Source: Waddliaceae bacterium (GTDB lineage Bacteria; Chlamydiota; Chlamydiia; Chlamydiales; Waddliaceae). Taken from it: a DNA stretch of 64,000 nt. Below, in pieces: positions 6,593 to 62,457 of the stretch. The stretch is taken from assembly GCA_963724325.1 (NCBI GenBank), contig CAVRUH010000001.1, positions 1,047,178 to 1,111,177 of the forward strand. The letters are read 5' to 3'. The notes under the pieces are model-generated. The model was not told the DNA's origin, did no database searches, and saw nothing but the letters and a program-made list of their open reading frames with translations. The position numbers and the translations under genes were made by a program. Positions within the stretch are counted from its first letter, which is position 1. Each line of letters opens with the position of its first letter.

Positions 6593-6813
6593 CAATTCAC
6601 AAAACTATAAAAACACGAGCTCGAATCGCATTTCAAAAAACTTTTTACAATCCCATTTTTTCTTATCCTGCTTATCCTGCCGCCTGCGATCATGCATATC
6701 CTGTTCTTTTAAGGGATAACAGGATATGCATGATCGCAGGCGGCAGGATAAGCAAGATAAGAAAAATTTTAAATGCGATTCGAGCCCGCGTTTTTATAGT
6801 TTTGTGAATTGTT
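6591..6813. repeat. Nested ~220-bp palindrome containing REP-like family A, between convergent genes
   Basis: Outer arms AACAATTCACAAAACTATAAAAAC...GAATCGCATTT and its reverse complement; inner arms ATCCTGCCGCCTGCGATCATGCATATCCTGTT and AACAGGATATGCATGATCGCAGGCGGCAGGAT. Confidence 0.9.
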
Positions 6814-11733: not shown

Positions 11734-11917
11734 AATGCCCCCATCTAAAATTATTCATGCTATTTTCAATTCTGATTATATTAAAATTATCAGTTTATGA
11801 GCAATGTTTATTTTACTGATTTTGTTGAACCTAACCGTTTTAAGGTCAAAAAATATATTGATTCAGAGTGTAAAATATGCTATCACCTGAGGATTAAATA
11901 ATTTTATTTTGGATATT

Positions 11918-12706
11918 ATGAGAAATTTTTTGAGAGTCGCAATTTTGGTCCTTTTTGTCCTTTTTGTCCCTTTTTCTGAGGCTCTTGTGGTGAATAGCCT
12001 TACCTATAATGGCAAATTCGATCCGGGGGAAATGAGACGCATAGAAGTGACTGTGACTAATGAAAAGGATGAAGTTGAGCAGGTGGAATTAAAGCTAGTT
12101 GATTATTGGACCAATGCTGAGGGACAGCATTTCTTTGAACAAAGTAAAGATCAACAGAGATCCAATGTGCCATGGGTGAAACTTGGGGTTAATAGGGTTA
12201 CTTTGCAGCCCAAAGAGTCGGCAACGATTCACTATACTGTAAATGTGCCTAATGATCCCAATTTGAAGGGAAGTTACTGGAGTGTTATCATTTTTGAACC
12301 TGCGGATCCAATTGCAACTAAAGAGCGTAAAGAAAATGAATTCCAGTTGTTGGTCAAAGTGCGTTATGCATATCATATTGTCACGGACATAGATCAGGGG
12401 GAATCTAATTTAAAGATTCTGCAGAAAGACTTTAAAAATTTTAATGGCAAGGAATTATTATGCATTGATGTTGCCAATGTTGGGGAGGTATTTCTTAATC
12501 CGCAGATGACGTTGAAGTTGTATTCAGAAGCCGGGATTCTAGAAAAGACCCTTGACGGAAGAAAGGAACGTCTCTATCCAGGCAGCTCTTCCCGATATTT
12601 TATAGATCCTGATGGCGTGGAAAAGAAAAATTACAAAGTATTTATGCTATTGGATAATGCTGATGGTAACATGTTTGGAGAAGCTTTTGATTTGCGGTTC
12701 CCATGA
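11918..12706 (+). CDS. Periplasmic chaperone-like protein (PapD/DUF916-like two-Ig-domain architecture)
   Basis: Signal peptide; PGE..IEVTVTN, WV..RVTLQPKESATIHYTVNVP..GSYWSVIIFEP; second domain with NVGEVFL and LYPG. Confidence 0.65.
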   Translation: MRNFLRVAILVLFVLFVPFSEALVVNSLTYNGKFDPGEMRRIEVTVTNEKDEVEQVELKLVDYWTNAEGQHFFEQSKDQQRSNVPWVKLGVNRVTLQPKESATIHYTVNVPNDPNLKGSYWSVIIFEPADPIATKERKENEFQLLVKVRYAYHIVTDIDQGESNLKILQKDFKNFNGKELLCIDVANVGEVFLNPQMTLKLYSEAGILEKTLDGRKERLYPGSSSRYFIDPDGVEKKNYKVFMLLDNADGNMFGEAFDLRFP

Positions 12707-15318
12707 AAAGATTAATACTATTGATGTTGTGTTGCTGGGTATTCTTGCATGCTGAGTTTGAGCTTACGTCTCCCGCTATACTTGAGGTTGACCCTGGAGA
12801 ATTCATTTACATAAGCGGTTTGTCGAAAGAGGTAGAAGACGTACGCTTGCAATGCCCTGAGAATTGGAAGGTTGTCTCGGGATTTGTCCCAGGCACTGTT
12901 CAAATCTTTTGTGTGAAGGTGCCGCAAGAGGCATTAGCAGGTGAATATGAAATTGCCATTGCTGCTCAAACCATTCGTGTAAAAGTCCTTCCAAAAGAAG
13001 ACTTTTCAGCTAGGGTTGAGAATATACAATCGAGTTATCTTCCTGATGATCCGATTCATTTGAACTTAGTTTGTTTGAATCGAGGAAATATCTCTATGAC
13101 AATACAGGTCGAGGTAACATCGGATCCGATATGCGACCTTGAATGTTCAGATGAGTGTCTTGAAATTCAACCAAGTGATTTAATATCTATTCCACTTCAC
13201 GTAAAACCTAAAGCCAATTTTGAAATTGAGAGGCAATTTGTTTTATTAAAGGTTAATGATGTAAAAACTGGAAAATATATTTATCAGACGACGTTAAATC
13301 TAAATGTTGTTCTTCCAGGCGCATCTGAAGATGATATGTATGTAAGAATACCTTCGGCTGTTTCGGCAATGGTGCTTGGAGATAGTAGCAGCACGGCATT
13401 CGCAGTCAAATGGGAGGGGGGTGGAATTATTGATCCAACGCGGGATCGTTATTTAGAATTTCTATTTCTAATTCCTACAAAAAATAATAACGTCATTTAT
13501 TCAAGTGATCAGGTTCTCTATTTGGCCATGAGTGAGCCTACTTGGGACTTTCAAATAGGTGATAGCATATATAATTTAACCCAACTTTCACAAAATTATG
13601 TTTATGGGAGGGGCATTGAATTAGATTTGTATGGCGATGTCTGGTCGGTGGGAGCGCATTACAATCAGGATTCTTGTGATAGGAGTCCTAATCTTAAGGA
13701 AACATGTGGATATATCGAATATGCCCCTACTCCTATTTTTAGTATGTCGGGGAATTACTTACATAAGAATCAAAAAGACTTTTGTGATGCGAATATTGCT
13801 ACTCTTTTGACCGATTTCGAATTCCCTTCCAAAGTATTCACAGAAATAGAAATTGCTAATAATTTTGTGAAAGAGACTAAATTGAGAAATTCCGGAGCTT
13901 ACAGAATTGAAACTCAAGGAAAATGTGGAAATGATACTTGGTTCGGCATAGAGCAAGTGGGAGCTGGTTCAAAATTTAATGGAAGTTATGAAAATGTAGA
14001 TTCCACATCAGCAATCATTGATTTTCCGATTAGAAATCTTGTCAGAGGAAACCTGAGTTATACACGTCTGAGACAAAATTTTATAAATTACTGCAGCAAT
14101 GAAGGGACCCTAGAGCCTCGTCAATATCAAATCAATGGTAATTTGAATTATAATATGATTTGCGGGGGCATATTGGGGCTTAATGCTTTTATTTTGCGAG
14201 CGAAGGACGTTGGTAAAAGAGAACAGTTTAATTTTTTGCAAAAGTGGATAGGAGCCTCGTTTTCCAGAAATTTGCGAGATTATATTTTCAATTCTAGAAT
14301 AGCTTTTGGAGCACAAAATGATTTTTTATTGCATCATTCTGTTGACAATTTGAAGAGTTTCTACTTTTTTCTCGGCAAAAATTTTACTCAAAATTGGCGT
14401 GGAGCCATTTTTTATGATGGAGGAAATACAAACTATTATGACCCTAAGCCTTGGCGGGATACTTTTGGGGTATCGACACAATTTAGATATGGCTCTGGTT
14501 CCTATTTAGATTTATATGTCCGCAATGTAAAAACGAGTCCCAATAAATTTAATTTTTTGGAGTGGGGGGTGAACTATGTGCATTTTTTTAAAAACCGACA
14601 TCAGATTCAGTTGGCAGCACAAAATATAAGGTATCGTTCTTCCATTAAAGATGATTTTCAATTTTTCCTCTCTTACACTATTCCTCTTTCTTTACCTGTT
14701 GGGAAAAGAAAGGATGTAGGATCTGTCAGTGGATATGTTTATGATGATTATGAGAGAAAAGCAGTCCCTTTTGCTACAATCAATTTAAACGGAAAAAAGG
14801 CTGTCACGGACGCAGAAGGGTATTTTAATTTTTCATCGACACCCGTGGGTATGCATGCTCTAAAAACAGAAAATCTTCCCCAAAATCTCTTGGCACAATA
14901 TGAGATCTCCCAAAATATCAATGTTTTAGGTGGAAAAAAAGTTGAAGTCCCAATTTCGGTAGTACAAGCTTGTTCTATTAAGGGGACAATCAAACTTTAT
15001 GTCTTTGACGACACTATCCCGCCTTGGGAAGAATCAGAACCACATATTATTGAAAAAGAAGTTGTCGCAGGCCTTAGAATATTTATTAGCAGTGAAAACG
15101 GAAAGGAAGTTTATACAACTATTTCAGATCGAGAAGGTTCTTTTGAATTCGCGATGCTTCGACCAGGGAAATGGACTATTAGCATCAATAATAATCAAAT
15201 TGCCTCTTCACATTTTCTAGAAGAAAAAGAGTTAATCTTAAATGTTAAACCTAAAGAAGATAAGGTTGTTAATTTAAGGGTTCTTCCTAAAACTCATAAA
15301 ATCAAACGTTTTCAGTAA
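12703..15318 (+). CDS. Usher-like outer-membrane protein (N-terminal Ig-like domains, central beta-barrel, two C-terminal carboxypeptidase-regulatory-like domains)
   Basis: Signal peptide; ATGA coupling to the chaperone; aromatic amphipathic beta-strands; GSVSGYV...TDAEGYFNF and SDREGSFEF...RPGKW. Confidence 0.6.
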   Translation: MKRLILLMLCCWVFLHAEFELTSPAILEVDPGEFIYISGLSKEVEDVRLQCPENWKVVSGFVPGTVQIFCVKVPQEALAGEYEIAIAAQTIRVKVLPKEDFSARVENIQSSYLPDDPIHLNLVCLNRGNISMTIQVEVTSDPICDLECSDECLEIQPSDLISIPLHVKPKANFEIERQFVLLKVNDVKTGKYIYQTTLNLNVVLPGASEDDMYVRIPSAVSAMVLGDSSSTAFAVKWEGGGIIDPTRDRYLEFLFLIPTKNNNVIYSSDQVLYLAMSEPTWDFQIGDSIYNLTQLSQNYVYGRGIELDLYGDVWSVGAHYNQDSCDRSPNLKETCGYIEYAPTPIFSMSGNYLHKNQKDFCDANIATLLTDFEFPSKVFTEIEIANNFVKETKLRNSGAYRIETQGKCGNDTWFGIEQVGAGSKFNGSYENVDSTSAIIDFPIRNLVRGNLSYTRLRQNFINYCSNEGTLEPRQYQINGNLNYNMICGGILGLNAFILRAKDVGKREQFNFLQKWIGASFSRNLRDYIFNSRIAFGAQNDFLLHHSVDNLKSFYFFLGKNFTQNWRGAIFYDGGNTNYYDPKPWRDTFGVSTQFRYGSGSYLDLYVRNVKTSPNKFNFLEWGVNYVHFFKNRHQIQLAAQNIRYRSSIKDDFQFFLSYTIPLSLPVGKRKDVGSVSGYVYDDYERKAVPFATINLNGKKAVTDAEGYFNFSSTPVGMHALKTENLPQNLLAQYEISQNINVLGGKKVEVPISVVQACSIKGTIKLYVFDDTIPPWEESEPHIIEKEVVAGLRIFISSENGKEVYTTISDREGSFEFAMLRPGKWTISINNNQIASSHFLEEKELILNVKPKEDKVVNLRVLPKTHKIKRFQ

Positions 15319-15389
15319 AAAAAATATTGCATATATTCTTTACAAATACTACACCTAAGGCAGAAGTAAAACTTTTTTTTAAGGAGTAT

Positions 15390-15872
15390 ATGAACAAAAA
15401 ACTGATTTTCGTCGGACTAGCTACTTTGGTATTAACCCAACAAGCTTTGTTCGCATCAACAACCGCAACAGCCACGGTTACATGGACAGTTGCATCCATT
15501 GATGCTATTTCAGTTTCCGGAAATCCAGGAACATTGACTGTTAATTCTGCAACCGCCGGTAGTGCCCCTTCGAGTGCTGCTGATTCAACAACTACTTATT
15601 CCGTGACAACGAATAATACAGCTAGAAAAGTTACAGGAGCTGTAGGCGTTGCCATGCCTACGGGTGTTACTTTGAGTGTTAACTTGGCGGCGCCTACAGG
15701 TGGAACTTCAATAGGAAGCGTTGGTTTGACAACAACTGCACAAAGTTTGGTTACAGGAATAGCCAATCTTGCACAGTCAGCGTTAGGAATTACGTATACT
15801 CTCGCTGCAACAGTAAGTGCGGCCCAAGCTTCTGCACAGACAGCGACCGTCACATACACTGTCGGACCCTAA
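15390..15872 (+). CDS. Pilin-like secreted subunit (Thr/Ala/Val-rich beta protein)
   Basis: AAGGAG RBS before ATG 15390; signal peptide; alternating N-terminal strand ATATVTWTV; C-terminal TATVTYTV; paralogues at 61544 and 62023. Confidence 0.7.
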   Translation: MNKKLIFVGLATLVLTQQALFASTTATATVTWTVASIDAISVSGNPGTLTVNSATAGSAPSSAADSTTTYSVTTNNTARKVTGAVGVAMPTGVTLSVNLAAPTGGTSIGSVGLTTTAQSLVTGIANLAQSALGITYTLAATVSAAQASAQTATVTYTVGP

Positions 15873-15879
15873 ATAATAC

Positions 15880-15906
15880 AACCCCGCTTTATTCCAAAGC
15901 GGGGTC
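15880..15906 (+). terminator. Hairpin, probable terminator of the pilin gene
   Basis: ACCCCGCTTT-ATTCC-AAAGCGGGGT immediately after the stop codon. Confidence 0.6.
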
Positions 15907-15940: not shown

Positions 15941-16045
15941 TTTTTCTTATCCTGCCTATCTTGCCGCTTGCGATCATCCATATCCTGTTCTTTTAAGGAA
16001 TAACAGGATATGGATGATCGCAAGCGGCAAGATGGGCAGGATAGG
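15941..16045. repeat. REP-like palindrome, family A
   Basis: ATCTTGCCGCTTGCGATCATCCATATCCTGTT ... AACAGGATATGGATGATCGCAAGCGGCAAGAT between convergent genes. Confidence 0.9.
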
Positions 16046-16058
16046 AGTCAGAGAATTT

Positions 16059-17378
16059 CTAGAAAAATTCGCTGCCGTCTATGGATTGAATCACATAATA
16101 ACTGAAGTTTTCCGCCCAGATGATGGTTGCATCGCCCGTGCTGTCTATAACAATCGCTGGGGTGATGGCATCTAACGTTGGATCAGAATGATCTACAGAT
16201 GAACTCCAAGAGCCGCCAAACGGCAAAGTGGCAGTTTGAAGAACAAAATTCGTGCCATTTAATCTGGTCCATACTGCTATTGCATTCCCGCTAGGGTCGA
16301 CAGCTACCATGGGTGATGCTGAATCTTGACCTGAATCAGAAAGACTGACTGGATCCGTCCAAAAATAACTATTTAACGTAGCGCTATAATTTGAAAATAG
16401 ACTTGAGCTTTCGACGAGTAGGTTTTCTCCATCATTGCGTGTCCAAATGGCGACGCCATTTCCTGATGGATCGATTGCAACTTGTGCGTTGTACGCATCT
16501 TCACCGGGTTCAGAAAGATACATTGGGAAGCTCCAGTTGCCATTGGAAGGCAAAATTGAAGCTTGGGTTATGAAGTTGTTACCATCAAATCCGCTCCAAA
16601 TTGCTACGGCACTTCCGTAATTATTGATAGCCACTTGGGGGTTCATAGCATCGTACCCTTGTATAGAAAGGTAGGTAGGATTTGACCAAACACCGTTGAT
16701 TGAATAGGATGCACATTCTGTATTAAGATTTGTGCCATCAAAACCGGTCCAAATGGCGATTGTGCTTCCGGTTGAATTAGTTGTTACTTGAGGCTGGAAA
16801 GCATATTCATAGGGTTCTGAGATATCTTCAGGAGCGCTCCAAACACCATAGTAGGTTCTTCGTATAGCTTGAATTCCAACGGAATCACCATCATATTTTT
16901 CCCAAACGACAACTATGTTGCCTATGCTATCGATGGCTACTTTAGCGTTGGCTGCAGAGATGCTAGGGTCAGAAAGAATCACAATATCTGACCAGCTCCC
17001 TCCAAATTCCCTCATTTTAACATTAATTTTGGAATTGGATACGCTATAGCTTTCCCATACCACTACGGCATTTCCAGCAGCATTCATGGCTACCATTGGA
17101 TTATAGCTATCTTCACCAATGGTTGAGAGGTCTGTGATGCCTGACCATCCTGCATTTGATGATTTTGTTGCGGATCGTATTTTGATGTTTTGTCCATTAA
17201 ATTCAGACCAAACCGCAATAGCGTATCCTGTGGCGTTTACTGCGAGATCTGGTGTTGTGGCCTGGTTTGCGTATGACGTAAGAGTCACAGGACTTGACCA
17301 TGATGCCATTAGAGGGGTTCCATTAAATATTGCGACCATTGTGATGACAGCATAAATCGAGATGCTAAGTAAATTCAC
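16059..17378 (-). CDS. Secreted repeat protein, probable 8-bladed beta-propeller
   Basis: Signal peptide; eight ~51-aa repeats W..P..LS..G.DA..P.VA.D..GNA.AVW. Confidence 0.8.
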   Translation of the reverse strand: MNLLSISIYAVITMVAIFNGTPLMASWSSPVTLTSYANQATTPDLAVNATGYAIAVWSEFNGQNIKIRSATKSSNAGWSGITDLSTIGEDSYNPMVAMNAAGNAVVVWESYSVSNSKINVKMREFGGSWSDIVILSDPSISAANAKVAIDSIGNIVVVWEKYDGDSVGIQAIRRTYYGVWSAPEDISEPYEYAFQPQVTTNSTGSTIAIWTGFDGTNLNTECASYSINGVWSNPTYLSIQGYDAMNPQVAINNYGSAVAIWSGFDGNNFITQASILPSNGNWSFPMYLSEPGEDAYNAQVAIDPSGNGVAIWTRNDGENLLVESSSLFSNYSATLNSYFWTDPVSLSDSGQDSASPMVAVDPSGNAIAVWTRLNGTNFVLQTATLPFGGSWSSSVDHSDPTLDAITPAIVIDSTGDATIIWAENFSYYVIQSIDGSEFF

Positions 17379-17515: not shown

Positions 17516-18826
17516 TTAGAATAATGTTGTTCCGTCGACAGACTGGATTACATAGTAATTGAAATTTTCAGCCCAAATGATTGTTGCATCTCCGGCACCA
17601 TCTATCACTACGGAGGGAGAAACAGCATCCAAGTGTGGATCTGATAAGTCTTGCGGAGCTGACCATGAGCTTCCGAATGGAAGAGAGGCTGCTTGTAAGA
17701 CGAAGTTTGAGCCATTTAATCTTGTCCATATTGCTACGGCGTTGCCGAAGGGGTCGACAGCTATGGCAGGGTTTGCAGCTTCACTTCCGGAGGCTGATAG
17801 ATTTACGGGGATTGTCCAATATAGACTTCCTTGGGTGGCGCTGTAATTTGAGTAGAGAGTGGATGACTGTGCAATATAATTATTCCCATCATTTCTTGTC
17901 CATACAGCGACAGCGTTTCCACAAGGATCTATAGCTACTTGTGCATTATATGCATCTTGTCCATCTTCTGATATCACCATGGGCATTGACCAGTATTGAT
18001 ATGAGTCTAAATAGGCAGCTTGAATAGTGAAATTACATCCATCATATCCGCTCCAAACTGCAATTGCTTCGCCGTCGCAATTGATATCTACATCTGTGCC
18101 CATTGAGTCAAATCCATATTCAGACAAGTATTCAGGGAACGACCAAAATCCGTAATCGTAAATGGATGCTTCTGTGTATAAGTTAACACCATCGAATCCA
18201 GTCCAAACTGCTACAGACATTCCTGTAGTATTTGAAACGATTTGGGGTTGAAAGGCATATTCGCCAGGAATTGATATGTCTTCGGGGCATCCCCAGACTC
18301 CATAGTATGTTCTTCGTATTGCTTGAATTGATACAGCAGCGCCTTCGTATTTTTCCCAAACTACGATGATGTTTCCAATGCTATCTATAGACACTTTGGG
18401 ATTAGCAGCATTTGCTCCGTCCTCTGAAAGAACAAGGATATCGGACCAGCTGCCTCCAAAGGGCTTTAGTCTGGCGCTTACGAGATAACTTTCTCCGTCG
18501 AAGCTTCCCCACACTACGATGGCATTTCCTGAAGCATTCATTGCAATTTCTGGGCTGTATGAGTTTATTCCGTCAGGGGTTAGGTAGGTGCAGGCTGACC
18601 AACCAGCGCCCGTTGTATGTGTTGATGATCGAACTTTTATATTTTGTCCGTTGTACTCAGACCATACACCAATTGCATATCCCGTGGAGCTGACAGCGAC
18701 GTTGGGGTTTGTGGATTGGTCCGCATAGGACGTTAAGGTTACAGGTTTTGACCATCCTGCTATTAGCTGGGCTTCGCTGAATAAAGTTAAAGCAGCAAAC
18801 AAAAATGCAATTCTTAGGTAATTCAT
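17516..18826 (-). CDS. Secreted repeat protein, probable 8-bladed beta-propeller (paralogue of 16059)
   Basis: Collinear with the 16059 protein over its whole length; same eight repeats. Confidence 0.8.
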   Translation of the reverse strand: MNYLRIAFLFAALTLFSEAQLIAGWSKPVTLTSYADQSTNPNVAVSSTGYAIGVWSEYNGQNIKVRSSTHTTGAGWSACTYLTPDGINSYSPEIAMNASGNAIVVWGSFDGESYLVSARLKPFGGSWSDILVLSEDGANAANPKVSIDSIGNIIVVWEKYEGAAVSIQAIRRTYYGVWGCPEDISIPGEYAFQPQIVSNTTGMSVAVWTGFDGVNLYTEASIYDYGFWSFPEYLSEYGFDSMGTDVDINCDGEAIAVWSGYDGCNFTIQAAYLDSYQYWSMPMVISEDGQDAYNAQVAIDPCGNAVAVWTRNDGNNYIAQSSTLYSNYSATQGSLYWTIPVNLSASGSEAANPAIAVDPFGNAVAIWTRLNGSNFVLQAASLPFGSSWSAPQDLSDPHLDAVSPSVVIDGAGDATIIWAENFNYYVIQSVDGTTLF

Positions 18827-26684: not shown

Positions 26685-27037
26685 CAGGATATGCAGGCAA
26701 ATGCATCAACATAAAATATCTTTGATTAAGGAGAACACAGAAAACATAAGAGAGATCATTGATATCTTGTTATTTCTCTAACAAAAAAACAGGATATGCA
26801 AGATCGCAAGCGGCAGGATATGAATGATTTATGCAACTTCTTACCTTGCTTTATAATAAAAAGTAATTGACATGATCTTCCTATAATCCTTCCTAACCCA
26901 TATGCATCAACTTAAAAAAAATAACACCGAGTTGACAGAGAAAACAGAAGGAGCACAGAGCTATTTTATACTCAATGACCTCTCTTGTGTCCTCTCGTGT
27001 TCTCTGTGGTAAAAAATATTTTAGGTTGATGGGTATG
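26683..27037. repeat. Mosaic of family A arms, an inverted half family B element, one diverged copy of the 164-bp array unit and a full family B element (26899-27037)
   Basis: Direct comparison with 47981-48144 and 61360-61501. Confidence 0.8.
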
Positions 27038-47980: not shown

Positions 47981-48979
47981 GATCGCAAGCGGCAGGATAT
48001 GAATGATGCATGTAACTTCTTACCCTGCTTTAAAATAAAAAGTAATTGATATCATCTTCCTATAATCCTTCCTATCCTGCCGCTTGCGATCCTTCATATC
48101 CTGTTTTCCTTTTGCAGGGAAGTTAACAAGGTATTAATATCAATGATCGCAAGCGGCAGGATATGAATGATGCATGTAACTTCTTACCCTGCTTTAAAAT
48201 AAAAAGTAATTGATATCATCTTCCTATAATCCTTCCTATCCTGCCGCTTGCGATCCTTCATATCCTGTTTTCCTTTTGCAGGGAAGTTAACAAGGTATCA
48301 ATATCAATGATCGCAAGCGGCAGGATATGAATGATGCATGTAACTTCTTACCCTGCTTTAAAATAAAAAGTAATTGATATCATCTTCCTATAATCCTTCC
48401 TATCCTGCCGCTTGCGATCCTTCATATCCTGTTTTCCTTTTGCAGGGAAGTTAACAAGGTATCAATATCAATGATCGCAAGCGGCAGGATATGAATGATG
48501 CATGTAACTTCTTACCCTACTTTAAAATAAAAAGTAATTGATATCATCTTCCTATAATCCTTCCTATCCTGCCGCTTGCGATCCTTCATATCCTGTTTTC
48601 CTTTTGCAGGGAAGTTAACAAGGTATCAATATCAATGATCGCAAGCGGCAGGATATGAATGATGCATGTAACTTCTTACCCTGCTTTAAAATAAAAAGTA
48701 ATTGATATCATCTTCCTATAATCCTTCCTATCCTGCCGCTTGCGATCCTTCATATCCTGTTTTCCTTTTGCAGGGAAGTTAACAAGGTATCAATATCAAT
48801 GATCGCAAGCGGCAGGATATGAATGATGCATGTAACTTCTTACCCTGCTTTAAAATAAAAAGTAATTGATATCATCTTCCTATAATCCTTCCTATCCTGC
48901 CGCTTGCGATCCTTCATATCCTGTTTTCCTTTTGCAGGGAAGTTAACAAGGTATCAATATCAATGATCGCAAGCGGCAG
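47981..48979. repeat. Tandem array of six 164-bp palindrome-containing units plus a partial seventh
   Basis: GATCGCAAGCGGCAG starts at 47981, 48145, 48309, 48473, 48637, 48801 and 48965. Confidence 0.97.
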
Positions 48980-49027
48980 AATAGAAATGATAGGAATGAT
49001 AGGAGGTGATGGTGTTGGGCTTTATCT

Positions 49028-59508: not shown

Positions 59509-60588
59509 ATGAAAAATGTTAAAGGTAAAACAGTTGTGGTTGGCATGTCGGGAGGAGTGGATTCCTCAGTAACAGCCCTTTTGCTCAAGCAGCAGGGGTT
59601 TGATGTCATCGGCATGTTCATGAAAAACTGGGAAGAAAGCGATGCCGAAGGCGTTTGCCAATCAGCTGCCGATTTCGAAGATGTCGTCAGGGTTTGCAAT
59701 AAAATCGATATCCCATATTACTCTGTCAATTTTGCAAAAGAATACTGGGACAACGTCTTCGCCCATTGCATTGAAGAATTCAAGAAGGGGAACACCCCCA
59801 ATCCAGATGTCCTTTGCAATCGTGAAATCAAATTCAAGGTCCTCTTCGACAGGGCCATGGAACTTGGAGGCGACTTCCTCGCCACCGGCCATTACTGCCA
59901 AATTCGTCAAAATAATGACAGAACTTTCTTGGCAAAAGGAGCTGATCCCAACAAAGATCAAACCTATTTTCTCCATATGGTCAATGAGGTCACCTTGCAA
60001 AAGGTTCTTTTCCCAATAGGTGCCATGTTAAAACAAGAAGTCCGCGATATCGCTCGGAAACACGATCTCCCTGTAGCCGAAAAAAAAGACAGCACGGGTA
60101 TTTGTTTCATTGGCGAACGGAAATTTAAGGACTTTTTGACTCAATTCATTCCTCAAAATCCGGGATGTTTCGAAAATACGCGAGGGGAAGTGATTGGAAA
60201 ACACGACGGCGTTTCATTTTATACCATCGGTCAGCGCCGCGGCCTAGGAATCGGCGGACCAGGTGAAGCTTGGTTTGTGGTGAAGAAAGATGTCGAGCGT
60301 AATGTGGTTATTGTAGAGCAAGGAGCCGATCACCCAGCATTATTTGCAAATGAACTGGCGGCGACCGATTTAAATTGGATTTCATATTCCGGAGCACCCG
60401 CATTGCCTTATAAGTGCGCCTCGAAAATTCGATACCGCCAAAGCGATCACCCCTGCATGATTGAAAAGATCGAAGAGGGGATGGCTATGGTATCATTTGC
60501 AACTCCGCAGAGGGCAGTAACACCCCATCAGTCGATTGTTTTCTACGACGGTGATATATGCCTCGGCGGCGGAATTATAAAATTCTAA
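59509..60588 (+). CDS. mnmA: tRNA 2-thiouridylase
   Basis: GMSGGVDSS, TPNPDVLCN, ATGHY, KDQTYFL, KKDSTGICFIG. Confidence 0.97.
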   Translation: MKNVKGKTVVVGMSGGVDSSVTALLLKQQGFDVIGMFMKNWEESDAEGVCQSAADFEDVVRVCNKIDIPYYSVNFAKEYWDNVFAHCIEEFKKGNTPNPDVLCNREIKFKVLFDRAMELGGDFLATGHYCQIRQNNDRTFLAKGADPNKDQTYFLHMVNEVTLQKVLFPIGAMLKQEVRDIARKHDLPVAEKKDSTGICFIGERKFKDFLTQFIPQNPGCFENTRGEVIGKHDGVSFYTIGQRRGLGIGGPGEAWFVVKKDVERNVVIVEQGADHPALFANELAATDLNWISYSGAPALPYKCASKIRYRQSDHPCMIEKIEEGMAMVSFATPQRAVTPHQSIVFYDGDICLGGGIIKF

Positions 60589-61262
60589 AACCAGCGAGCG
60601 ATGCCTATTTTGCCGCCGTAGCCGCGGATCCCATCTTTAGTTTCACCCATGCTTTCGTTGTAGGCGATACCGACATTGACTGACCAGCATTTGTTTAGGT
60701 CGTATTCATATTGGGCGCCGTAGCTAGGGCCGTTGCTCCAACTTTTGTTGTCCAGTACATGTTTAATTTTTGTGTGCGTATGGCACCAGGCCCATTGGAA
60801 CGTCCCGGTAACACGCATGTTGTCTGCAATACTATAGGTCAATTCAAGGCAGAGGTATGGGGAAATAGAGCGGAAATTATCTTCAAATTCCATGTAAACT
60901 TCAGGAGCAACTTCAGCAGTTATGGGTGTGTTGAGGTTTGCCATAGATACTCCTGCCGAAGGGGTGAGAAAAAAGCAATCTCCAATGGGAAGGCAGTGGC
61001 CGAAACCAATTGCGCCCGTGATGAGTTCTCCTTCATTTTTTCCATACATGAACATCGGCTTGACGCACCAGCCGCCGCCAAATATGACGACTCCATCTGC
61101 GCGGATGGCAGGCAGATCAAGTTCTTTTGCTGTGTGCCCTTTTTCGAGTACGTCAAGGTGAATATAAGCGGGAGCAAGCTCCACTTTTCCCCAGATTTTC
61201 GCTGCCAAATTTTGTTGGAATAGGCTAAGAGCTGTTACAGTAACAATGATCGTGCGATACAT
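60585..61262 (-). CDS. Small outer-membrane beta-barrel protein
   Basis: GGAGG RBS before ATG 61262; signal peptide; amphipathic strands; terminal Phe. Confidence 0.75.
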   Translation of the reverse strand: MYRTIIVTVTALSLFQQNLAAKIWGKVELAPAYIHLDVLEKGHTAKELDLPAIRADGVVIFGGGWCVKPMFMYGKNEGELITGAIGFGHCLPIGDCFFLTPSAGVSMANLNTPITAEVAPEVYMEFEDNFRSISPYLCLELTYSIADNMRVTGTFQWAWCHTHTKIKHVLDNKSWSNGPSYGAQYEYDLNKCWSVNVGIAYNESMGETKDGIRGYGGKIGIARWF

Positions 61263-61543: not shown

Positions 61544-62020
61544 TTAGGGGCCGGCCATGATTGTAAATGTGGCGGTATTTGTTGCTGATGTCACGGGAGC
61601 TGCGGATACCGAAGCAGTTAAGGTGTAGGTGAGTGTTCTACCAGTCTGATTTGTAGCCTTCATGGCATTGCAGAGTGTGCTTGCGGTTGTACTTAGAGTT
61701 GGAGTAAAAACAGTCGCTCCTGTTGGAGTTAGTATAGTTAGTGTTAATGTGGTGTCGGAAGGCATATTAGAACTTAAGCCGACAGTGATTTTCCTTGCAG
61801 CTGTATTTGTTGTGTAGCTAATAGAGGTTGAGGTATTGGTTACGTCGGCTGGCGAGGAACCTGCCGCTGGCACCGTTGTTGTCATTGTTGGACCTCCGGT
61901 GACAGATATGGCATCGATTGCGTTTACGACCATTGTTACAGACTGTGTAGCTGTAGTACTGGCCGCATTTACAAAAGAAATGTGAGAGATGCATATAAGT
62001 AAAAGCAGTTTTTTTTTCAT
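61544..62020 (-). CDS. Pilin-like secreted subunit (paralogue of 15390)
   Basis: Signal peptide; ASTTATQSVTMVVNAIDAISV, TTN..ARKIT, TYTLTASVSAA. Confidence 0.75.
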   Translation of the reverse strand: MKKKLLLLICISHISFVNAASTTATQSVTMVVNAIDAISVTGGPTMTTTVPAAGSSPADVTNTSTSISYTTNTAARKITVGLSSNMPSDTTLTLTILTPTGATVFTPTLSTTASTLCNAMKATNQTGRTLTYTLTASVSAAPVTSATNTATFTIMAGP

Positions 62021-62022
62021 AT

Positions 62023-62457
62023 CTACATAATGGTCAGTGTTACAGTAGTTGATGTTGTTCCCGTCGCTGCAGCGCTCGTTGCAGAAAACGTATATGTTAT
62101 TGTATTAGAAGCTGTTGTGATGGGAAGGGAGGTTTCAAGACTTTGGGCTGTGGTGCTTAGTGATACAATAGCAGAAGAGGCTCCTGCAGCTGCTCGCAAA
62201 TCTATTTTCAAAGTTCTTCCTGTAGCAAGGGCTGGAGAACAGCTTCCCGTGATTTTATTCAAACCAGTTCCTGTATTTGTAAAAGTATATGTCGTTGAGG
62301 CGTCTGTTACTGCCGTGGGGGCTGATCCAGCAGTTGCCGATGAAACAGTCAGTGTGCCCGGATTTCCTGATACAGATAAACTCATGGCGGCAGCATTGAT
62401 ATATGTGGAAAATGTGCAAAATAACAGAATAGAAATGCCTAGATACGAGCGATTCAT
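62023..62457 (-). CDS. Pilin-like secreted subunit lacking the N-terminal extension
   Basis: SVSGNPGTLTV.SATAGSAP nearly identical to the 15390 protein. Confidence 0.75.
   Translation of the reverse strand: MNRSYLGISILLFCTFSTYINAAAMSLSVSGNPGTLTVSSATAGSAPTAVTDASTTYTFTNTGTGLNKITGSCSPALATGRTLKIDLRAAAGASSAIVSLSTTAQSLETSLPITTASNTITYTFSATSAAATGTTSTTVTLTIM

Follow-up and report, generated by a model that had tools for sequence, protein, structure and literature searches.

A conserved three-gene locus of a Waddliaceae bacterium predicted to build a donor-strand fibre with a WxL-type chaperone and a plug-less usher-like barrel

The window analyzed here is a 64,000-nucleotide (nt) stretch of contig CAVRUH010000001.1 (assembly GCA_963724325.1) from a Waddliaceae bacterium of the phylum Chlamydiota, and the system under study is a set of three adjacent genes in it that encode a chaperone, a large barrel protein and a small pilin (Table 1). 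The locus is real, conserved and unannotated, and NCBIfam provides no name for chaperone, barrel or pilin. We propose that the three genes probably build a surface fibre by donor-strand exchange, using a soluble WxL-type chaperone and a predicted plug-less outer-membrane pore of 26 strands. The original prediction, made from the sequence alone, described the trio as a divergent chaperone-usher pilus operon, and its account of the genes is borne out. The three open reading frames (ORFs) are all located on the plus strand with lengths of 262, 871 and 160 residues, and the first two are coupled by an ATGA overlap at 12703-12706. Each product begins with a hydrophobic stretch (best 10-residue Kyte-Doolittle means of 3.6, 3.0 and 2.8), as expected for the signal peptides claimed, which were judged by hydrophobicity with cleavage sites placed by eye. 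The mature small protein is rich in Thr, Ala and Val (22% Thr, 18% Ala, 12% Ser and 11% Val) and contains the two predicted strand motifs, ATATVTWTV and TATVTYTV. An alternative upstream start of the chaperone ORF, a TTG at 11909, is possible.

The expression signals of the operon are less clear than had been supposed. A Shine-Dalgarno-like motif is present at the pilin gene, but its description as a strong ribosome-binding site is unproven because the spacing to the ATG is just 3 nt. The terminator assigned to the pilin gene corresponds to a real hairpin, but a terminator is called on the minus strand only, and no U-tract follows the hairpin on the plus strand. Given that the T-tail lies on the minus strand, the hairpin more likely terminates the convergent gene at 16059-17378 than the operon. 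The scan of the window yielded 5 terminator-like sites versus 4.5 in shuffles, and promoter-like sites were at chance level (18 versus 17). The listing shows no RNA holder at the operon, a negative that has no bearing on expression.

Table 1. Coordinates of the operon, of predicted elements within its genes and of the pilin paralogues in the window
Feature	Position	Strand	Basis or detail
Gene of the soluble two-domain chaperone, WxLIP/DUF916-related	11918..12706	+	262 residues, predicted signal peptide, PF06030 match
Predicted chaperone donor strand, residues 140-151	12335..12370	+	parallel pairing with pilin residues 126-138 in the model
Gene of the usher-like outer-membrane protein	12703..15318	+	871 residues; AlphaFold2 model and Foldseek
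Predicted barrel of 26 consecutive strands, no inserted plug domain	13339..14706	+	DSSP on the model
Two C-terminal CarboxypepD_reg-like sandwiches, in place of usher CTD1/CTD2	14716..15288	+	PF13620 in 39/39 members
Shine-Dalgarno-like TAAGGAG	15380..15386	+	3 nt 5' of the pilin ATG
Likely major pilin gene	15390..15872	+	160 residues, ~138 mature; AlphaFold2 and fold matches
Pilin N-terminal strand, candidate donor strand	15456..15491	+	unpaired in the monomer, outside the chaperone interface, conserved motif
10-bp hairpin between operon and convergent gene	15881..15905	.	minus strand alone carries the T-tail
Distant pilin paralogue with donor strand	61544..62020	-	158 residues; pilin profile E 1e-39
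Distant pilin paralogue without donor strand	62023..62457	-	144 residues; pilin profile E 3e-35

The locus is not a chance arrangement because all three proteins have full-length homologues that neighbour each other in other genomes. A scan with the pilin alignment, covering a single genome of each species, provided 49 pilin-anchored loci, and profiles of the other two proteins identified all three genes in 40 of them. The remainder contain the pilin alone (7/49), the pilin and the chaperone (1/49) or the pilin and the barrel (1/49), and several of these incomplete loci are short contigs. The record titles name Chlamydiota, Armatimonadota, Atribacterota, Zixibacteria, Nitrospirota, Ignavibacteriota, Dictyoglomota, Krumholzibacteriota, Synergistota, Spirochaetota, Verrucomicrobiota and Proteobacteria, and the gene set is also found on a plasmid of the cultured Deinococcus deserti VCD115 (DEIDE_RS15110-15125). 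Among 400 scored genomes of the phylum Chlamydiota (one further genome was unscored), the chaperone is matched in 29, the barrel in 34 and the pilin in 25, one of these pilin matches being weak (G206, E 2e-4). All three genes occur together, by a hand count, in 24 of the 400 genomes, corresponding to 24 of the 25 that bear a pilin. The three-gene set was not found in the 6 other genomes of the same family or in 29 genomes of another family of the phylum (f4), whose listed genomes are 1.0-1.2 Mb. A system specific to chlamydiae was rejected, since the set occurs in many phyla, yet in only those 24 genomes of its own phylum.

The pilin adopts a seven-strand sandwich in its AlphaFold2 model (predicted local distance difference test, pLDDT, 95.9), in which residues 1-15 are unpaired. 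An incomplete immunoglobulin (Ig) fold with a free N-terminal extension is present in both the monomer model and the complex model described below. No Pfam or NCBIfam family name was found for the pilin, and its profile retrieved nothing informative from PDB sequences (best E 0.26). CfaB heads the Foldseek list (E 0.009, prob 0.99), which consists mostly of donor-strand pilins and has no match at E<=0.001. In the VIA structure search, the best Z score is 7.5 for a cannula, followed by 7.2 for CfaB and CooA, and none reaches Z>=8. The candidate donor strand is conserved: of the 128 rows that have all five columns, 101 show small-x-[GAQS]-x-[VI]-x-[FYW].

What would complete the pilin fold before assembly? 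Modelling of the chaperone-pilin complex gave a score of 0.88, compared with 0.00 for the best of 3 controls; of the solved pairs, 116 of 157 reach the mark for this score, as do 2 of the 215 mismatched ones, and these figures apply only roughly here. Agreement between the runs covers at least 95% of contacts, with a partner pLDDT of at least 89. In the complex model, chaperone residues 140-151 lie parallel to the last pilin strand, Arg149 at the end of the chaperone strand touches pilin residues 133-136, and pilin residues 1-12 remain free. The modelled pose is the geometry of donor-strand complementation, which is described in the accessible portions of the literature on both chaperone-usher (PMC13721041) and WxL (bioRxiv 10.64898/2026.10.17.759780) systems. 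Arg149 is an arginine in 50 of 50 homologue rows. Glu127 is likewise invariant, Arg218, Arg226 and Tyr239 are conserved, and several of these residues are located at the modelled interface. For comparison, chaperones of the alternate and archaic chaperone-usher classes anchor the subunit carboxylate through an invariant Arg in strand F of domain 1 and Tyr/Arg residues in domain 2.

The chaperone passes the cut-off of PF06030 (WxLIP/DUF916; 34.5 bits versus 27.3), and PF11797 is absent from it at E<=1. Among 50 chaperone homologues, PF06030 was detected in 8 and PF11797 in 1 at E<=0.01, PapD_N in none and a C-terminal membrane helix in none (maximum 19-residue hydropathy of 1.02 versus 2.47 in the DUF916 control). 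The family profile aligns with a DUF916 protein of Cohnella (Bacillota), the sole such protein compared directly, over 205 columns (96.9%, E 1.8e-10); against PDB sequences, it is uninformative (best E 0.14). The two-Ig chaperone of the original prediction is indeed a two-domain protein that complements the pilin in the model, but it is of the WxLIP/DUF916 kind rather than PapD_N. The genome encodes a second chaperone paralogue (G000:C5:93060-93821), which has no pilin or barrel nearby and occupies a different tree branch from the window chaperone.

The large protein consists, in its AlphaFold2 model (pLDDT 86, predicted template modelling score, pTM, 0.59), of two N-terminal Ig domains, 26 consecutive strands and two C-terminal sandwiches, matching the domain layout claimed for it. 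In all 39 homologue rows, the barrel spans 430-487 residues with a longest loop of 34 residues, and there is therefore no embedded plug. The modelled strands would close into a pore. FimD and PapC fill the first 11 Foldseek rows (E 2e-15 to 2e-11), with LptD at 3e-7. VIA aligns usher barrels over ~350 residues with a root-mean-square deviation (rmsd) of 4.2-5.8 A, and its alignments to PapC (7lhh) and FimD (9fy9) extend through the C-terminal sandwiches (rmsd 9-12 A); among the 50 VIA rows listed, only usher chains reach into the C-terminal domains. The chaperone profile can be aligned to the two N-terminal Ig domains over 174 columns (90.7%, E 1e-6), which lack the chaperone hairpin, a likeness that may reflect shared ancestry or a generic fold. 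The barrel profile retrieved only generic Ig and transthyretin-like domains from PDB sequences, and the usher family is not among the 25 families listed, of 27 in total, for the 39 barrel homologues. The claim of an usher stands, in the model, for the barrel and the two C-terminal sandwiches, but not for the strand number (26 rather than 24), the embedded plug or the N-terminus, which is different. The original prediction had taken the lack of a wide plugged barrel to speak against a pilus; the missing plug counts in part against a canonical usher and not against the mechanism.

Could the locus nevertheless encode an ordinary, if very divergent, chaperone-usher system of the alternate or archaic class, with a plug that exists and was mis-modelled as barrel strands? 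The best pilin matches (CfaB, CooA and CS17) and a weak CooC_C match in a Deinococcus homologue (E 0.27) favour such a membership, as do two arginines of chaperone domain 2 (mature residues 196 and 204, each in 46/50) that lie at the modelled interface as in the non-classical chaperones of PMC4654587, in its accessible part. However, hydrophobicity alternates along all 26 strands, a short turn is regularly followed by a longer loop, and the 39 rows leave no space for an inserted domain. Moreover, usher PF00577 and PapD_N PF00345 have 0 matches in this genome (84.6% complete) with positive E. coli controls for both, and the chaperone scores with PF06030 instead. We thus regard an ordinary usher with a hidden plug as quite unlikely. 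Classical PapD/Usher membership was rejected on the same profile results.

The donor strand is missing from a distinct class of pilin paralogues. In 11 of 138 rows, 11-15 residues separate the h-region from the SG motif, compared with 21-35 in most others, and 15 of the 20 phylum genomes with at least two pilin matches have exactly one match that starts at profile position 31-39 (hand count). The paralogue at 62023-62457, located 46 kb from the operon and adjoining another pilin, has 14 such residues and a profile match starting at position 31. It comprises a single small domain and, judging from its sequence, is likely the tip or first subunit. The genome inventory adds a fourth pilin elsewhere and a single barrel, and genomes of the phylum contain up to 8 pilin paralogues, one of them without the donor strand. 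Outside the chlamydiae, a second small family usually lies between pilin and chaperone (29 loci, hand count). Its 25 aligned members are related to the pilin over the last 75 columns (86%, E 5e-6) and apparently, by eye, also lack the donor strand; no match to this family was found in the present genome.

The same machine might also produce a capsule-like coat or short matrix-protein oligomers in place of a long adhesive pilus. Such a product would agree with the small single-domain tip candidate and the lack of a visible adhesin domain, and the accessible parts of two sources offer precedents, namely tipless WxL operons that are maybe structural (bioRxiv 10.64898/2026.10.17.759780) and the Caf1 capsule, which is built by a chaperone-usher system (PMC13721041). 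However, the numerous pilin paralogues with one donor-strand-less member fit an ordered fibre, and we consider a coat or short oligomer very unlikely, although the sequence cannot give the fibre length. It is highly improbable that the barrel is an LptD- or AlgE-kind transporter and the small protein its separate plug or a cargo that the chaperone escorts, without any polymer. In favour, LptD has 26 strands and a separate plug protein and is among the Foldseek matches, AlgE is level with the ushers by VIA Z, and barrel-only relatives exist. Against it, Foldseek places LptD eight orders of magnitude behind ushers, and a free N-terminal donor-type strand, paralogues missing exactly that strand and several paralogues per locus are the needs of a polymer, not those of a plug.

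For the donor-strand fibre that we favour, the following pathway can be envisaged. All three proteins would cross the inner membrane by Sec, as their N-terminal hydrophobic stretches suggest. The chaperone strand is predicted by the model to complete the pilin fold in parallel to its last strand, leaving the first 12 pilin residues free. Periplasmic Ig domains of the barrel protein may then receive the chaperone-pilin pairs, in keeping with the usher-like architecture. The donor-strand-less paralogue would enter first and become the tip, given its sequence and its near one-per-genome count. By analogy, the N-terminal strand of each new pilin would displace the chaperone from the previous pilin, and the chain would traverse the barrel. 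Lacking an embedded plug, the pore needs some other means of closure at rest; we speculate that a terminal Ig domain or a stalled tip subunit would most likely shut it. The fibre most likely serves general surface or cell-cell adhesion. Attachment to a host or to amoebae, raised in the original prediction, is not supported, given the few carriers in the phylum sample and the lack of a visible two-domain adhesin.

Several observations weigh against a donor-strand fibre of this kind. The pilin fold matches are individually weak (template modelling, TM, scores of about 0.4-0.55) and are mixed with integrin and other Ig-like rows, the C-terminal tail of the pilin varies in length (1 to 5 residues), as would not be expected of a strict carboxylate anchor, and no adhesin domain was found and no two-domain adhesin seen. 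Resemblance to chaperone-pilin complexes already solved may explain why the complex score passes. As for the barrel protein, Foldseek aligns it to ushers with a TM of just 0.22-0.33, AlgE (17.7), FimD (17.3) and OprD-type porins match it about equally well by VIA Z, and its pTM leaves the domain placement unsure. The barrel can also exist apart, since six genomes have a shorter relative with no chaperone or pilin matches. Furthermore, an unplugged 26-strand pore is a membrane-integrity problem for which we have no explanation here. The core of the original prediction, a divergent donor-strand pilus, is supported by co-conservation, folds and the complex model, but the system has a plug-less barrel and a WxLIP-type chaperone and is not a chlamydial speciality.

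The shorter barrel relatives (547-639 residues), which lack the C-terminal sandwiches and are possibly a repurposed pore, belong to family f7; three were inspected (L084:2854-4773, L085:4955-6730 and L086:4414-6057). A more distant four-gene version with other small subunits is carried by a plasmid of Deinococcus sp. NW-56 (L083:4947-10520; chaperone E 4e-29, barrel E 3e-19). Three chlamydial loci (L087, L088 and L089) have five to eight pilin paralogues, some of them acidic or Cys-containing variants, around one chaperone and barrel on both strands. In the present genome, an orphan pilin paralogue (G000:C1:332548-333018) lies beside a Tad/Flp-like cluster at 326217-332136 (secretin, ATPase and TadE-like genes, named by eye). 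Downstream of the distant pilin pair in the window, a small barrel-like outer-membrane protein is encoded at 60585-61259 on the minus strand (weak OMP_b-brl match, E 0.001). On the other side of the operon hairpin, convergent paralogous genes at 16059-17378 and 17516-18826 (minus strand) encode secreted repeat proteins of ~437 residues with propeller-like repeats by eye and no Pfam match above cut-off. A palindromic repeat of ~100 nt at 15945-16046 has 48-nt arms that are 94% complementary and ~97 copies in the genome, resembling repetitive extragenic palindromic elements or miniature inverted-repeat transposable elements. Further copies in the window lie at 6657-6766, 26754-26828 and 48065-48996; near 48 kb, six copies stand in tandem at a spacing of 164 nt.

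A quick unrooted tree of 55 chaperones places 27 chlamydial rows on one side of a branch with support 95; its rows exclude three chlamydial sequences on long branches, two distant ones from plasmids, three duplicates and seven near-duplicates, and one row (L002) was called chlamydial from its tree position alone, which is circular. A fuller 67-row tree does not resolve the chlamydial rows. The window chaperone groups with a record titled Parachlamydiaceae (support 99). These trees allow a long residence in Chlamydiota with many losses. A bolder and rather doubtful extension is that the system represents an ancient third branch of chaperone-guided pili that has a pore class of its own (26 strands, plug-less and gated by a chaperone-like N-terminal module), which has been in Chlamydiota since early and was the diderm source of the Gram-positive WxL pili, with the pore lost and the chaperone tethered.

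The plug is central to current ideas of usher gating and activation, and a widespread plug-less version tests its necessity. The locus provides a candidate surface fibre for environmental chlamydiae and many uncultured phyla that annotation pipelines have missed, and its cultured carrier, D. deserti, is open to direct tests. We found no description of the present system in the literature, in a search that reached few subscription papers. WxL chaperones are treated, in the accessible part of a preprint, as Bacillota-only, disjoint from chaperone-usher chaperones and usher-less (bioRxiv 10.64898/2026.10.17.759780). One family that joins a WxL-type chaperone to an usher-like pore therefore suggests that the two pathways may share ancestry. 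PF06030 also passes its cut-off in our control genome of Thermotoga maritima, outside the Bacillota range given for WxL chaperones.

The WxL (Elr) pilus of Enterococcus and other Bacillota resembles the present system in its homologous DUF916/WxLIP chaperone and in the pilin pattern, small-x-small-x-[VI]-x-aromatic, which is similar to the [S/T]-x-[G/A]-x-[V/I]-x-F reported in the accessible part of the WxL preprint (bioRxiv 10.64898/2026.10.17.759780). WxL makes up 20% of the Pfam-bearing Atlas cluster nearest to the pilin (score 0.90), which is no more than a lead. In contrast to its WxL counterpart, the present chaperone is soluble, without a C-terminal helix or a PF11797 match, and the system has an outer-membrane barrel in place of sortase anchoring; the operon contains no sortase gene, and the rest of the genome was not searched for one. 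WxL PF13731 was detected in 0 of 139 pilins at E<=0.05 and in 0 of 25 minor subunits at E<=0.1. The present system also occurs in diderms, whereas the WxL system is described, as far as the accessible text of the preprint extends, as Bacillota-confined and usher-less. The preprint, in that same part, demands the two chaperone modules together with a WxL hit that exceeds the threshold, and it would therefore miss the present family and report confinement to Bacillota. True WxL membership was rejected because PF11797, PF13731 and the membrane anchor are all lacking.

Other donor-strand filaments (archaeal cannulae, TasA, TLP-1 and the Pam pili of candidate phyla radiation (CPR) bacteria) share the fold class of the pilin. 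Cannulae polymerize without a chaperone, according to the title of the paper describing them. Pam operons carry chaperone-like genes, and a link with Pam pili was rejected on the statement, in the accessible part of PMC13278184, that Pam pilins occur only in CPR bacteria. A link with the CT pilus of Microcystis was likewise rejected, given a different fold according to its authors in the accessible part of their article (PMC12397347).

The closest likeness in organization is to chaperone-usher pili (FimC/FimD/FimA, PapD/PapC, CfaA/CfaB, CooA and CsuC), with which the present system shares the gene set and order, a two-domain chaperone that donates a parallel strand in the model, an incomplete Ig-like pilin with a free N-terminal strand, and a barrel followed by two sandwiches whose best Foldseek matches are FimD and PapC. 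A textbook usher combines 24 barrel strands with an internal plug, as outlined in the accessible part of PMC13721041, whereas the present barrel has 26 strands and no embedded plug, and its protein carries two chaperone-like N-terminal Ig domains. The variable C-terminal tail of the pilin, the lack of PF00577 and PF00345 matches and the absence of any visible two-domain adhesin are further differences. The system thus departs from the curated chaperone-usher families in strand number, plug and profiles, and it lacks three defining features of WxL pili (PF11797, the membrane anchor and PF13731). We propose that it likely works like the chaperone-usher pathway without being a member of the curated families.

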